The position numbers were made by a program, and so were the translations under genes. The notes under the pieces were generated by a model, which saw nothing but the letters and a program-made list of their open reading frames with translations, was not told the DNA's origin and searched no databases. Positions 7,096-11,777 of a stretch of DNA of 11,777 nt are shown in pieces. The first letter of the stretch is position 1, and every line of letters starts with the position of its first letter. This stretch comes from a virus, in UHGV virus genome UHGV-1359708; one strand, 5' to 3'.

Positions 7096-9276
7096 ATGAC
7101 AGACATTATAACTAATGTTGTAATTGGGATGCCTTCGCAACTCTTCACTATGGCTCGTTCTTTTAAAGCCGTAGCCAATGGCAAAATTTATATCGGTAAA
7201 ATTGACACGGACCCGGTAAATCCTGAAAACCAAATTCAGGTTTATGTGGAGAACGAAGACGGATCTCACATTCCCGTTTCGCAACCAATAATTATTAACG
7301 CTGCTGGCTACCCTGTATATAACGGACAGATTGCTAAGTTCGTAACCGTGCAAGGGCATTCTATGGCTGTGTACGATGCATATGGATCACAGCAGTTCAA
7401 TTTCCCTAATGTGCTGAAGTACGATCCAGATCAGTTATCAGTCATGTTAAATCTATCTTGGCTTCGAGGAATGAATGGATTTTTAGGTGGTGAGGTTTAT
7501 CCTAATAAAATTGGAATTGATGCAAAAATAGGAGACTTAATTCCCGAAGGTGTAAGATTCGTTAGGCTTGATGGCGCCCTTATGATGATGAGCACACCAT
7601 TATCATCACCATTGACAATTACCAGTTATGACTCAACTGTAATTAATGATAATATTGAACTTTACCCAATATCATTTTTTAATGAGGTTAATTCTGGTTG
7701 GAAAATTGCACAAAATGACGCTCAACTTAGTAGACTACTTCCACTATCTGGAAATATCGGGATCGCTTACTCTCCCGTAACTGTAGAAGGTATATTTAAT
7801 ATTCAGGGAGACATCCTCATAAAGCCGTTATTGCCAAAAGTGACGGTAGATTCCAGACAATTATGGCTCAGATCCCCACGGACATGGAACGAATCAAATC
7901 AAGAGTTTGACTATACTCCATATGATATACGCATTGTCGGTAATTTCTTGTTTGATTTTTATCGGCAGAATGCTTCATTTGACCCAGGGGTTGGTTTGGC
8001 CATGCAATCTGCAGGTACACTTGAGCTTTCAGGGTGTGAATTGCAGGGGGCATGGAATAGCAACGTAACGATGGATTATGGGAGATGGGTTCTTGCCGAT
8101 AATCTGTACTCACATGATTGTGGTCGTGGGAAAATTCAAGATCCAGATGGCAGCAACCGAACTGGCATGGCGATCATTGTTAATGACCCCACAGAGGCGC
8201 ACGTCCATCATATCCGTTGCAGAAACACTTGGGCATCATCTTTGTTCTTCTCATCACGTCGCCCAAACCGTACGCTTAATCTTATGATTCACGATGTGAG
8301 CATTAATACCTCTGGTGGTAACGGTTTGCGTATTCAGTCAGACGACCTTGTGAACGGTTATGGTGATGGCACAGCTATCACAAGAGTTAACATAAACGCC
8401 GTTACAATCAAAAACTGTGAAAGCCACGGTCTTCGAGGGAATTTCCGTAATGGAGTAGTTACTGGACTATATGTAGAAAGTTCGAACGCAGGTGTCGCAA
8501 TTGAAGGAGCTAGTGACGTATCCTACGATAACGTTGTTATTCGTAACTGCTCGCAGGGTTTGTTATGCCGCTTCTATCCGGTAGAAAACACAAGGATGCG
8601 TTTTTCTAACTTCTTGATATCAGGTTGCTCTGCTGAAGCTGTTTATTTTTTGAGAAACTCAGCCAATACCACGACTAATCTTGCCGACATCGAGTTTGAC
8701 GGCATTACGATACACGCACTTGCAAATGGTGCAAAAGGGTTTGTTTTCAACGGTGGGCCTGCTGCGGTGCCAACCACAGATTTAACATTAAAAAATGTTC
8801 GCATAGTAGGCGCTTACCCTAACACAGAAAATGGGCATTATATCGTCATCATTAACTGCCGCCACATAGAGGTTGATAATGTGAACTTGAGGGGGTGCAA
8901 TGGAAGCGCAGAATCTTATTTACAAGCACTAGCCACACAGAGTGTTATTGTTAACAGGCTGGTAGCTGTGCAACCATTCGGGACAGTTAACAGGCCAATA
9001 TATACAAATGGTAGTGGTTCTGACGCTATAGTGAACATTACGAACTGTGTGGCCCCTGACACAACCACAGGTAGTATTGGGTACAACCCTGTACCAACAA
9101 AACGTTATGAGGCTAACAACCAGTTTGCCAATAGCTCACAACCTCAGCAGTATCCATTTACCAATTCCGGTGCGTTACGCGGTGGAGACGTAAACACCCT
9201 ATCTACTAAGGATATTGCTAACATAGTGGCAACACTAGTTAACGACATTAGCAATGGCAAATTTGTTGTAAGGTGA
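7096..9276 (+). CDS. Tailspike protein: P22-type head-binding N-terminal domain fused to a divergent parallel beta-helix receptor-binding/depolymerase domain
   Basis: The first roughly 114 residues ([50 protein letters not shown]...[29 protein letters not shown].....NVLKYDPDQ) match the conserved P22 gp9 head-binding domain as I recall it. The remaining roughly 610 residues are unrelated to P22 and show repetitive N/G/V/I-rich beta-helix-like strands (for example [63 protein letters not shown]). GGAG Shine-Dalgarno at 7084-7087. Confidence 0.9.
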
Positions 9277-9278
9277 CT

Positions 9279-10640
9279 ATGATGGCGCGTAGAAACGCGC
9301 TATCATCCTGTACTTTCTTTAAAGATCGGGTAAAAATAGTCATTTTTACATACAATATTATGAATATTTATGAATCATTTTTTACTTATGTGCTACCTGC
9401 GTTGTATGCCATAACATTAATATATTTAAGTGCCGTGTCATTCAAAAAACATGGCGTGTCATTCAAATCTGTTGGGATGTTATTCCTTGTTTTTACTCAT
9501 TTTTTTGGGTATATATCGCTTCCGTTTAGAGTTGGGGCAAAAGTTAGTTCTGCAGAATATATGCCGTATCAATATATAAATGATGTGTCTACGTTGTCGT
9601 TTATTGGTATAGTTTTGTTTTATGTATTCTCTCATACAGCGGCAGGAAGAAATAAAATAACTTTTTCTGATAAATATTTTATTGGTAGCCCAAAATTATT
9701 TGTAAGAACAACGTTGTTTTTAAGTTTTGTTGGAATGATGGCTTTTTATGCTATAAACGGCATATCTTTTAATTCTGATGATTATGCTTTAAAGCTTGGC
9801 GGAAATGCTGGTAGTGGTGTTATTATAATGATAATGTCATCTTTTGTTTCTGCTGTTATAGTGTATGCAATTACATCTGACGATAAGTATGTGTTCGTTA
9901 AATCAATTATAATGTCATTGTTATTTGGGATGGCATATTATGTGCTTATTGGTGGCTCAAGAAATGTAATGTTTTCCGCAATGTTTATTGTTGCTCTTAT
10001 TTGTCACTCTAGAGGCCTAATTGGCATATTGAAGTTAATATGCATAGGCTCTGCGTGCTTAATTCTAATTGGTATAATGGCTATAGTGAGATACTCAGAT
10101 GTTGATATTTCAGAGTCTGGCTCTCTGTTTGGCATTATAGTAAGATATTTAGCTGATAGCGTATCTCCTATCAATTATCAGAGTATAGCTGTTAAATACT
10201 TTAGCAATGATCGCAATGTTGGTGGTATCTATTATTTCTTTACTCAATTTTCAGGGTTTATCCCAAGATTCATATGGCCTGACAAACCAATTGTCACAAT
10301 GAATAGCTCATATTACTTTACCGTGAGTGCTCTTGGTCTTAGCAATGGATTGAATATGGCATCAACTTTGCTTGGGTCATCGCTTGTTATTTTCGGAAAG
10401 TATTTTTTCTGGTGCTCATATGTTATCTCAGGCGTTGTTTTTAGATTTCTTGATAAAATCATATTGATGAGGAGAGTTGGCGTAATACAAATAGCTGCAC
10501 TTATGACAATGCCTTTTTCATTTTTTATGGCAAGGGAGAGCCTTGAATTCTTTTTATTTATTTTCTTAAAAAATATAATAACTGTATCATTTGTATATTT
10601 TTCATATAAGGCAATATACTATATATTGCCTAAAAAATAA
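9279..10640 (+). CDS. Polytopic inner-membrane protein, tentatively a Wzy-like polysaccharide (O-antigen) polymerase or other surface-glycan modifying enzyme; start uncertain (alternative ATG at 9360)
   Basis: Long ORF in conspicuously AT-rich DNA immediately after the tailspike stop (TGA at 9274-9276). AAGGTG at 9270-9275 precedes ATG 9279/9282; the first hydrophobic helix begins right after the in-frame ATG at 9360 (MNIYESFFTYVLPALYAITLIYL). By eye there are at least 10 hydrophobic helix-length segments separated by short basic loops, plus one larger hydrophilic loop (RYSDVDISESGSLFGIIVRYLADSVSPINYQSIAVKYFSNDRNVGG). Size, Phe/Ile/Tyr-rich composition, low G+C and location next to a tailspike resemble phage- or host-encoded Wzy proteins. 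There is no acyltransferase-3 type N-terminal motif and no accompanying gtrA/gtrB. Confidence 0.7.
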   Translation: MMARRNALSSCTFFKDRVKIVIFTYNIMNIYESFFTYVLPALYAITLIYLSAVSFKKHGVSFKSVGMLFLVFTHFFGYISLPFRVGAKVSSAEYMPYQYINDVSTLSFIGIVLFYVFSHTAAGRNKITFSDKYFIGSPKLFVRTTLFLSFVGMMAFYAINGISFNSDDYALKLGGNAGSGVIIMIMSSFVSAVIVYAITSDDKYVFVKSIIMSLLFGMAYYVLIGGSRNVMFSAMFIVALICHSRGLIGILKLICIGSACLILIGIMAIVRYSDVDISESGSLFGIIVRYLADSVSPINYQSIAVKYFSNDRNVGGIYYFFTQFSGFIPRFIWPDKPIVTMNSSYYFTVSALGLSNGLNMASTLLGSSLVIFGKYFFWCSYVISGVVFRFLDKIILMRRVGVIQIAALMTMPFSFFMARESLEFFLFIFLKNIITVSFVYFSYKAIYYILPKK

Positions 10641-10682
10641 AAAACCGCACGCGATAAGCGTGCGGAAGTTCTCATTTATTTT
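10632..10682. terminator. Bidirectional rho-independent terminator between the convergent cargo genes
   Basis: GC-rich hairpin CCGCACGC (10645-10652), loop GATAA, GCGTGCGG (10658-10665). It is flanked by an A-run on the 5' side (10632-10644), which gives a U-tract for the minus-strand transcript, and by a T-rich tail AAGTTCTCATTTATTTT on the 3' side. It lies 5 nt after the + strand stop (10640) and 7 nt after the minus-strand stop (10672-10674). Confidence 0.75.
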
Positions 10683-10989
10683 GCATGTATAGTAACTTAT
10701 TATCTTTTGTGCATTTTACTAATATTTTTTCCTCGCCCCTTGAAGCTATGAACTGGCTATGGCTGTTGAAATCTATGTTATGACCAGCAAAGTCTAGCGC
10801 TATCATTTTGAGGTTTGATATGCATGATGAATATTCTCTTGAGAAAGAAGATCTTAATTTAAAGTTGTCACCTGAAATACTTTGCGTATCATGCCCTTTT
10901 GAGCTTGATGACATAGGATAAAAAGAAATAACAATTATTGTTGTAATGATTATTAATATAATTATATTTAAGCATTTATCCTTATTCAT
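10672..10989 (-). CDS. Small signal-anchored or secreted protein of unknown function (about 105 aa from ATG 10989; 118 aa if the upstream ATG at 11028 is used)
   Basis: Minus-strand ORF in the same AT-rich block. From Met-14 the protein reads MNKDKCLNIIILIIITTIIVISFYPMSSSSKGHD..., that is, a short basic N-terminus, one roughly 20-residue hydrophobic segment, a Ser-rich linker, then a hydrophilic body of about 70 aa. The ATG at 10989 has an AAGG 13 nt upstream; the ATG at 11028 has no recognisable Shine-Dalgarno. No lipobox. Ends at the bidirectional terminator. Confidence 0.5.
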   Translation of the reverse strand: MNKDKCLNIIILIIITTIIVISFYPMSSSSKGHDTQSISGDNFKLRSSFSREYSSCISNLKMIALDFAGHNIDFNSHSQFIASRGEEKILVKCTKDNKLLYMQNK

Positions 10990-11047
10990 TTCCGTTTGCC
11001 TTGTAATGATGTGGTAAATTCGCAACATGGTTGTGCATAAAATTCAG

Positions 11048-11061
11048 TTAAGTATATCACC
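11048..11061 (-). promoter_or_regulatory. Candidate extended -10 promoter element (TGnTATACT on the minus strand) for the small cargo gene
   Basis: Reverse complement of 11051-11061 reads GGTGATATACT, which is TG, one nucleotide, then TATACT, resembling an extended -10 element. No convincing -35 was found. It sits appropriately upstream of the 10989 start. Sequence-pattern evidence only. Confidence 0.3.
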
Positions 11062-11180
11062 AACAAAAATAACGATCGATATGTCTATTCATGCATAATT
11101 TCTCTAGTTTGTTAGTGACATAAAACCAAGTATGTAACAAGATGTTTCCTGTAATTGCTGCAACGCGCTGTTATTGTTCT

Positions 11181-11777
11181 TTAATCAACCTTCCCATCAA
11201 GCCAGTCTGCCCACCACTGCATCATTTCTCTGCGTTTGTCGAGATACTGAGCATGGTTGTATATTCCACGCACAGATCCGCCGTTGGCATGTGCCAGTTG
11301 CACTTCAATAGCGTCAGCAGGCCATTCGTGCTCGTTCATAATTGTGCTGAATTCATGCCTGAATCCGTGACCGCTTTCCAGACCCTCATAGCCGATTTGT
11401 TTGATCACAAGCAGTACAGCGTTCTCGCAAATTGGCTTCTTCTTATCGTTGCGCCCGGCAAAAACAAACTCTGATACTGGTTTGGTGATTGAGCTTAGCG
11501 TAGTGAGAAGTTCAACTACCTGGTCTGACATAGGAACCACATGAATTTTGCGTCCCTTCATCACACTGGCGTCAATGGTGATAATCCTGTTTTCAAAATC
11601 GACGTTCTTCCATAGCATGGAACGAAGCTCTTTTGTTCTGAGGGCTGTGTAGCGTAAAACTTTGGTCGCAATGAGCGATACGATGCTTCCTGAAAATGTT
11701 GCCAGTGCTTTGTTAAATGCCGAGATCTGGTCGGCAGGTAAAAACGGGAAGTTCTTCTTGCGGTATCCCTTCATGGC
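11181..11777 (-). CDS. int: Tyrosine integrase, C-terminal catalytic domain (partial; the N-terminal part lies beyond the window end)
   Basis: The minus-strand ORF runs off the window edge; the ATG at 11774 listed in the ORF track is internal. It contains the hallmark catalytic elements of tyrosine recombinases in order: Arg in ...MKGRKIHVVPMSDQ..., H-x-x-R in ...HGFRHEFST..., and the nucleophile Tyr in ...VRGIYNHAQYLDKRREMMQWWADWLDGKVD (stop at 11181-11183). The C-terminal YNHAQYL..RR.MMQWWAD.LD tail resembles P4/CP4-57-type integrases as I recall them. Confidence 0.85.
   Translation of the reverse strand, partial: AMKGYRKKNFPFLPADQISAFNKALATFSGSIVSLIATKVLRYTALRTKELRSMLWKNVDFENRIITIDASVMKGRKIHVVPMSDQVVELLTTLSSITKPVSEFVFAGRNDKKKPICENAVLLVIKQIGYEGLESGHGFRHEFSTIMNEHEWPADAIEVQLAHANGGSVRGIYNHAQYLDKRREMMQWWADWLDGKVD

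Follow-up and report, generated by a model that had tools for sequence, protein, structure and literature searches.

The DNA examined here is an 11,777-nucleotide stretch of UHGV virus genome UHGV-1359708, which we call the window, meaning the whole of this stretch. Near its right end it carries a small open reading frame (ORF) of 118 codons on the minus strand, at 10672..11028. Judged by the pattern of substitution among its homologues, this ORF is a protein-coding gene under long-term purifying selection. In an exhaustive HMMER search of 1.84 billion representatives its family was seen only beside prophage genes for a polysaccharide polymerase (wzy) and a tailspike, in three lineages and two phage morphotypes. 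We tentatively propose that the product is a bitopic periplasmic inhibitor of the host polymerase Wzy, or of the Wzy-Wzz complex, which would be analogous but not homologous to gp22 of phage epsilon15 and Iap of phage D3. We hold this at somewhat less than even confidence. It is the best single hypothesis because of the position of the gene, its independence from the family of the partner polymerase, its co-variation with host specificity and the lack of any other conserved small hydrophobic ORF.

Does the protein belong to any known family? The initial annotation, made by reading the letters of the DNA, recognised none, and the databases agree. Scans of Pfam, PHROGs, NCBIfam and PADLOC with the small protein returned noise only (no PADLOC or PHROG match at E <= 1), and a profile search of PDB sequences gave no matches. 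Two scans of species-representative genomes found no relatives, the viral contigs scanned held just one near-identical copy, and the 50,697 phage records searched by tblastn contained no match at E <= 1. A word-indexed search returned only the protein's own 90% cluster. The exhaustive HMMER search found two true relatives, P0003 of lineage b (107 residues, 45% identical, E = 1.8e-15) and P0005 of lineage c (113 residues, 38% identical), the window copy itself being of lineage a. A profile search added P0007, which is the intact form of the P0005 lineage, and identity to lineage c lies at 35-38%. Two other HMMER matches, P0004 and P0006, were rejected as repetitive, low-complexity proteins.

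The three lineages share their length, an 18-19-residue N-terminal hydrophobic helix that ends in F-[YF]-P, a variable linker and 22 invariant positions. Nonsynonymous divergence (dN) between lineages is 0.56-0.78 and synonymous divergence (dS) is saturated at 2-3, giving a dN/dS of about 0.27 (dN 0.56 / dS 2.0); within lineage c it is 0.22. Identity at the three codon positions between lineages is 0.55/0.69/0.40, a pattern of the coding type. We regard the gene as real because homologues at 35-45% identity have kept its length and architecture with this type of substitution. For comparison, we estimate the chance of an open frame this long in DNA of 30% G+C content at roughly 5% for the region.

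Intact copies are found on 320 contigs for the main lineage-a sequence and on more than 150 for lineage c, from Escherichia coli and Enterobacter hormaechei. The initial annotation had named frame-disrupting variation in related prophages as something that would speak against its proposal. Frameshifted copies do exist (P0002, P0005 and P0008), but they are rare, being single-contig variants or lying in degraded islands, and the frame is intact on hundreds of contigs. Decayed lineage-c copies occur in Enterobacter cloacae GS1 (L011:10001-10342 and 10628-11563) and in a second locus, L018. In these the small gene is frameshifted and has lost its transmembrane helix, and the polymerase is cut to 311 residues or fragmented.

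Variation within lineage a has a different character. We compared 13 near-identical copies, the window and 12 others (L001-L009, L020-L022), and found 8 polymorphic sites in the small ORF, 7 of them singletons, and none in the 191 nucleotides upstream. All 8 are nonsynonymous. The ratio of nonsynonymous to synonymous sites is thus 8/0, next to 9/20 in wzy, 5/48 in the integrase gene intS and 39/46 in the tailspike gene. The excess is significant in relation to wzy (Fisher p = 0.0006) and to the singletons of neighbouring genes (p = 0.003), and an 8:0 ratio does not differ from neutrality (p = 0.11). It may be due to relaxed constraint in domesticated remnants or to diversifying selection. Further protein variants are present in the small-protein cluster. 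Among the individual changes, S48Y in XH2172 alters an invariant residue, and the window copy has a private I16T in the transmembrane helix.

The product has a simple layout, consisting of an N-terminus (residues 1-6), a hydrophobic helix (about 7-24), a variable linker (25-45) and a conserved domain of 60 residues. The hydrophobic segment, serine-rich linker and hydrophilic body that the initial annotation described are all present, and the hydrophilic part amounts to 80 residues. The transmembrane or signal-anchor helix, LNIIILIIITTIIVISFY, is encoded by codons 7-24 (10918..10971, minus strand) and is assigned from hydropathy, from an AlphaFold helix at residues 3-23 and from its hydrophobic character in all three lineages; the best 19-residue hydropathy window, CLNIIILIIITTIIVISFY, has a mean Kyte-Doolittle value of 2.66. 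Codons 46-105 (10675..10854, minus strand) encode the conserved folded domain, which AlphaFold2, run with an alignment, models as one helix and a four-stranded antiparallel sheet. The alignment was small. In this model the transmembrane helix spans residues 3-23, residues 25-42 are disordered, a helix spans 53-65, and the predicted local confidence (pLDDT) is 87-91 over residues 50-100.

The invariant residues include F23 and P25 at the end of the transmembrane helix in all three lineages, and the columns S47, S48, F49, Y53, C56, L60, D66, F67, F74, N75, F80, A82, C93, K95, N97, K98, L99, Y101 and Q103. Of the two invariant cysteines, Cys56 (10822-10824) lies in the helix of the domain and Cys93 (10711-10713) in its third strand, and in the model a Cys56-Cys93 disulfide probably pins the domain. 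It is this cysteine pair, with the disulfide that it suggests, that leads us to place the domain in the periplasm. We infer a bitopic inner-membrane protein with a cytoplasmic N-terminus and a periplasmic folded domain. The initial annotation had left open whether the protein is membrane-anchored or secreted. The single transmembrane segment and the periplasm-facing body that it predicted are borne out, but cleaved secretion finds no conserved signal-peptidase site. The hydrophobic core is long, at 18-19 residues, and the residues that follow it (FYPMSSSS, FFPAITKP and FYPKSADE) contain no conserved small-x-small site. There is also no lipobox, as Cys6 precedes the hydrophobic segment and is a glycine in lineage b. 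For these reasons a type II membrane anchor is more likely than secretion.

Where does the coding sequence begin? The frame is open from 11028, which the initial annotation took as the start of its longer ORF. This is probably wrong, and the most likely coding sequence is 10672..10989 on the minus strand, which encodes 105 residues (MNKDK...MQNK) and ends with a TGA stop at 10672-10674. The start at 10989 is favoured because the lineage-b homologue in locus L010, P0003, begins at the corresponding ATG in the alignment and cannot be extended upstream in frame, and because PGAP also picks the 105-residue form (WP_040073225 / WP_033813222). The in-frame extension, MLRIYHIITRQTE (10990..11028, minus strand), is probably 5' untranslated region, as the aligned region of L010 has no stop-free in-frame ATG. 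The predicted transcription start lies only about 15 nucleotides upstream of 11028, and no Shine-Dalgarno sequence serves a start there. The one that serves 10989 is weak (AAGG, 11-14 nucleotides upstream), and this may be the reason that PGAP passes over the gene in some genomes although their DNA is identical to that of genomes in which it is annotated.

Transcription signals of the gene's own were part of the initial annotation, which described a candidate extended -10 element, a terminator shared with wzy and a Wzy-like gene as convergent neighbour. All three hold up. The neighbour is a Pfam WzyE match (8.8e-19), and both signals are present, with the U-run of the terminator on the small-gene strand. 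The promoter block (11034..11089, minus strand) is conserved with lineage b and includes the extended -10 TGaTATACT (11051-11059). A simple -35/-10 scan missed this extended -10 (TG-a-TATACT, 11059-11051). The 21-nucleotide promoter core, ATTTTTGTTGGTGATATACTT, recurs without change upstream of P0003, the 45%-identical homologue in L010, and about 56 nucleotides around it are largely conserved between the window and L010, whereas the coding sequences have 55% nucleotide identity. This degree of conservation, above the coding level over the whole block (11034-11089 in the window, L010:9915-9970), suggests a regulatory site beyond the -10 element. A GATC (Dam) site lies in the -35 region of the window and is absent from L010. 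At the other end, the intrinsic terminator (10636..10665, minus strand; terminator scan and RNA fold) consists of a hairpin at 10645-10665 followed by a U-run. The hairpin has an 8-base-pair stem with 7 GC pairs, a folding energy of -17.7 kcal/mol and a z-score of -4.6 relative to shuffled sequences. It is located 5 nucleotides past the wzy stop of the opposite strand, and it is first of all the terminator of the small ORF because its T/U-run is on the minus strand.

The three lineages differ in how the small gene is arranged with its partners. In lineage a, the window, it is convergent with wzy at a distance of 31 nucleotides, the polymerase is of the WzyE type and the tailspike has a P22-type head-binding adaptor. 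In lineage b (L010) it overlaps the polymerase gene by 4 nucleotides, the polymerase (392 residues) is of the O-antigen_lig/Wzy_C type and the tailspike (813 residues) belongs to a myovirus-type prophage. In lineage c (L012-L016, L023 and L028) the polymerase follows after a 1-nucleotide gap, has 406 residues and is 48% identical to that of L010, and the tailspike is of the P22 type. A further lineage-c locus, L017, is a short contig that stops at the beginning of the polymerase gene. Lineages b and c both have the small gene directly upstream of the polymerase gene, and the pair is convergent with the tailspike gene. No similarity was detected between the WzyE-type polymerase of the window and the polymerases of lineages b and c.

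By contrast with the polymerases, the receptor-binding parts of the tailspikes are about 50% identical across the three lineages, despite different N-terminal adaptors. Since the small proteins and the receptor-binding domains are homologous and the partner polymerases are dissimilar, the small protein, as far as its sequence relationships tell, co-varies with the receptor specificity of the tailspike, meaning the host polysaccharide, but does not track the family to which the partner polymerase belongs. The tie between small gene and phage polymerase that the initial annotation had drawn from a single locus is much stronger now that it recurs in three lineages. In addition, the small gene and the polymerase gene are intact where insertion sequence elements break the tailspike or other genes. 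Several hosts hold prophage remnants, and in strain 124 many prophage genes are pseudogenes. None of the three cassettes has an extra conserved short hydrophobic ORF of the Iap kind.

The tailspike module itself has a wider distribution. Over 7441-9273 (plus strand) the window tailspike is 68-69% identical to the C-terminal part of gp66 of the N4-like phage G7C, and its receptor-binding part is equally close (68-69%) to the tailspikes of Shigella phage MK-13, whose host is Shigella boydii 1, and Enterobacter phage fGh-Ecl02. As the receptor-binding part is shared under different adaptors, it is one module that has moved among podo-, myo- and Ackermann-type phages.

What would the host target be? 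The galF-gnd locus of strain 124 contains a Wzx/Wzy cluster whose polymerase belongs to the WzyE family, and the prophage polymerase (9279-10640) is 31% identical to this host Wzy (L026:2078-3319; E = 1e-37). The host galF-gnd wzy is present in only 67 of 5426 complete E. coli genomes. Among the 27 lineage-a lysogens it is found in 23 or more, against a chance expectation of about 0.3, and A10 and MY203L1, the two complete E. coli genomes with lineage c, also have it. No complete E. coli genome contains the lineage-b module. With a phage Wzy homologous to the host Wzy, restriction to hosts that have the corresponding cluster and a place beside the tailspike gene, the window has the traits of a polymerase-replacement cassette, and we consider it to hold a candidate prophage serotype-conversion cassette of this type.

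Strain 124 has a second polysaccharide cluster, of the O8 type (wzm/wzt), between wzzB and his, the arrangement described for B4/H24RxC of sequence type 410 (ST410) (PMC10786849). In strain ZYB62 the galF-gnd cluster is the sole such cluster in the region examined. The mannose-1-phosphate guanylyltransferase gene of the O8-type cluster of strain 124 has an internal stop (L026:13162-14577), and for this reason the polysaccharide made in that strain may be the Wzy-dependent one of galF-gnd. In-silico typing as 'O8' may misdescribe the surface of such strains.

A known companion of phage wzy genes is a small membrane protein that inhibits the polymerase of the host (PMC4815439, PMC12004945). In D3 this is Iap, a 31-residue peptide reported to mimic a transmembrane segment of Wzz (PMC12004945), and the role that we propose is like that of Iap, a small phage membrane protein that puts the host Wzy out of action and leaves the phage Wzy to set the linkage (PMC4815439, PMC12004945). 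In epsilon15 it is gp22 (NP_848230, 'serotype conversion: alpha polymerase inhibitor'), like our protein a small membrane protein encoded in a conversion cassette beside the tailspike gene. The epsilon15 order of tailspike gene, terminator and, on the opposite strand, polymerase gene preceded by the gene for the 66-residue inhibitor is matched by lineages b and c. In the window, unlike in epsilon15, the small gene is convergent with the polymerase gene and not co-transcribed with it. The phage polymerase of lineages b and c is of the Wzy_C/O-antigen-ligase type, a family other than the host's, as is also the case in D3 and epsilon15, and the polymerases here have no similarity to that of epsilon15. 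Of the candidate roles listed in the initial annotation, the one linked to inhibition of a polymerase has thus gained from the epsilon15-like position in two lineages, but not from any homology to epsilon15 gp22 or to WzzB.

We envisage the following. The small protein would be made in the lysogen under the control of its extended -10 promoter. It would attach to the chromosomal Wzy, or to the Wzy-Wzz complex of the host, on the periplasmic side of the membrane and disable it. Binding there, and not only within the membrane, is suggested by the conserved part being a folded periplasmic domain. The target would be on the host side, as dissimilar partner polymerases go with homologous small proteins and receptor-binding domains, and would not be the partner polymerase. 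The prophage polymerase could then join the same repeat units by a different linkage, and the altered polymer would no longer be a substrate for the phage's own type of tailspike, leaving the lysogen resistant to superinfection. The inner-membrane proteins Wzz and WzzE also have a periplasmic domain and also act on Wzy at this face, and to that extent the small protein as proposed is of the same kind. In other respects it is different, for Wzz has two transmembrane segments and a large coiled-coil periplasmic domain (325 residues in this host), and the small protein has 105 residues and one segment, and gives no Pfam or NCBIfam match to a Wzz domain.

A number of observations weigh against an inhibitor. 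The known inhibitors are short, wholly hydrophobic proteins (31 residues with one transmembrane segment; 66 residues with two) without a folded periplasmic domain. Iap, as described, is three times shorter than our protein, and gp22 has two transmembrane segments and no folded soluble domain, where the small protein has 105 residues, a single segment and a 60-residue domain with a cysteine pair. BLASTP gave no alignment of the small protein with gp22 at E <= 100 and no significant one with the host WzzB, short transmembrane segments being poorly comparable by sequence. The window polymerase is homologous to the presumed target and so would need immunity. The topology rests on hydropathy and the cysteine pair, with a weak positive-inside signal. 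Four lineage-a lysogens, E94, E92, 90-1 and N273, are not among the carriers of the host wzy that were seen. The 8 nonsynonymous and 0 synonymous sites within lineage a fit relaxed constraint, and the tight coupling to the polymerase gene in lineages b and c fits a subunit or cofactor of the polymerase equally well. An inhibitor of a specifically new class, in which a disulfide-stabilised periplasmic domain on one transmembrane helix targets the WzyE-family polymerase of an E. coli/Enterobacter cluster common in ST410, is a more doubtful proposition than inhibition as such.

An accessory subunit of the phage polymerase is, in our view, unlikely, if still the strongest competitor. Such a protein would bind, in the periplasm, the polymerase or the lipid-linked repeat unit and set the linkage, the chain length or the access of Wzz. 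The 4-nucleotide overlap and 1-nucleotide gap in lineages b and c are typical of partners made in a fixed ratio, the small gene is always accompanied by a polymerase gene, and a membrane anchor would hold the folded domain on the side where polymerisation takes place. However, the partners come from two polymerase families without detectable similarity, the small gene of the window is a separate, convergent transcription unit, the protein does not resemble the Wzz co-polymerases, and the Wzy enzymes that have been characterised require no subunit (PMC12004945). Could the gene instead be an independent moron that is merely linked to the conversion region, acting for example in superinfection exclusion at DNA entry or in another envelope process? 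The region between tailspike and integrase genes of P22-like phages is a hot spot for morons, such as gtrABC of P22, oac of Sf6 and hyp24 of Kapi1, which often lie on the opposite strand with signals of their own; several are O-antigen conversion genes (PMC8787464). None is homologous to the small gene, and where the P22 gtrABC and Sf6 oac types glucosylate or acetylate, the cassette in the window implies replacement of a polymerase. The gene does have its own promoter and terminator, its nonsynonymous excess (8/0, with the significance in relation to wzy given above) could reflect an arms race, and the Kapi1 gene in the same position left lipopolysaccharide unaffected (PMC8787464). All the same, a moron of unrelated function is a little less probable than a subunit, given that the family is found only in the polymerase-tailspike context across its lineages and morphotypes, has no PADLOC or PHROG match and is kept together with the polymerase in remnants that are unable to make phage.

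The remaining two explanations are improbable to different degrees. The protein might act on another step of periplasmic assembly, such as ligation by WaaL, O-acetylation or glucosylation of side chains, or Wzz-dependent length control, much like the third component of the epsilon15 and D3 systems. Conversion by these two phages goes beyond replacement of the polymerase (PMC4815439), Iap of D3 works via the Wzy-Wzz interface (PMC12004945), and the cassette context would be identical to that of an inhibitor. Enzymatic activity is unlikely, though, in a domain of 60 residues that has no catalytic-looking motif, there is no similarity to known modifiers and nothing points to a particular target, so that we give this explanation little credence. 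Least credible by a wide margin is a non-functional ORF, either a chance frame or a decaying gene in AT-rich moron DNA. The inconsistent PGAP annotation of identical DNAs, the weak Shine-Dalgarno sequence, the compatibility of the 8/0 polymorphism with neutrality and the frameshifted copies P0002, P0005 and P0008 are all of the kind that it predicts. Against these stand the diverged homologues with their conserved length, transmembrane helix, cysteines and motif blocks, the low dN/dS both between lineages and within lineage c, the hundreds of contigs with an intact gene, the confident prediction of a domain, the conserved promoter and the well-formed terminator. The conservation comes close to refuting a non-functional ORF, and we treat it as essentially excluded.

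The setting of the cassette can be described briefly. The window corresponds to the right-hand arm of a P22-like prophage, with genes for virion and ejection proteins followed by the tailspike gene, wzy, the small ORF and the intS end. Near-identical DNA is present in 27 of the 5426 complete E. coli genomes, mostly adjoining the tRNA-Arg gene argW, and in none of the sequenced free phages. The P22-type tailspike gene (7096..9276, plus strand) has a Pfam Head_binding match at 6e-64, and its receptor-binding part is the one that co-occurs with the small-protein family. The WzyE-family polymerase gene occupies 9273..10640 on the plus strand. Three candidate starts, 9279, 9360 and 9390 (plus strand), are each used by PGAP in different genomes, and the true start is uncertain. 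A hairpin with a 12-base-pair stem (9279-9306, plus strand) followed by a T-rich stretch lies 3 nucleotides past the tailspike stop, where it shares sequence with the 5' end of the longest wzy ORF. The 3' part of intS (11181..11777, minus strand), known from the ORF list and the annotation of identical loci, marks the right prophage end beside argW. The small gene has a G+C content of 29.6% and wzy one of 32.4%, next to 50% in the phage backbone, and such low values are typical of polysaccharide genes. A scan of the whole window for RNA families gave no Rfam matches.

The right-arm module is also found at other chromosomal sites. It lies beside ybhB-bioA in STEC306-308 (L002), and in E94 (L007) it adjoins a MazEF pair and a P2-type prophage. 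These different sites imply that the cassette has been rearranged or is carried by phages with different integration specificities.

Replacement of a host polymerase by a phage polymerase plus an inhibitor is a classic mechanism of lysogenic conversion. To our knowledge, Salmonella epsilon15 and Pseudomonas D3 are the only cases in which it has been elucidated. What we describe is therefore a known kind of system, phage conversion with polymerase replacement, in which the small protein represents a new family, unannotated so far, whose build is unlike those of the two known inhibitors. A cassette of this sort is not described for E. coli in the literature that we searched, and an 'inhibitor plus second wzy' is no more than a speculation in a 2019 review of E. 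coli O antigens (PMC7685785). The candidate cassette that we describe is complete, with tailspike, polymerase and small membrane protein, and its carriers in E. coli and Enterobacter hormaechei include clinically relevant hosts; many of the E. coli carriers have the O8-type wzm/wzt arrangement seen in ST410 B4/H24RxC (PMC10786849).

If the protein is an inhibitor of the new class outlined above, it would be the first of its kind in E. coli and would provide a ready-made probe for the periplasmic face of WzyE-type enzymes, and the excess of amino-acid changes in lineage a would represent ongoing tuning against variants of host or phage polymerases. An inhibitor of any build would offer a structurally tractable Wzy ligand with a soluble domain. 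It would also account for possible errors in predicting the surface polymer when the serotype is read in silico from the chromosomal cluster, and it would be relevant to phage therapy and to vaccine targeting of the ST410 clone. Should the protein not be an inhibitor, it would still represent an unannotated family whose very specific genomic association calls for an explanation.

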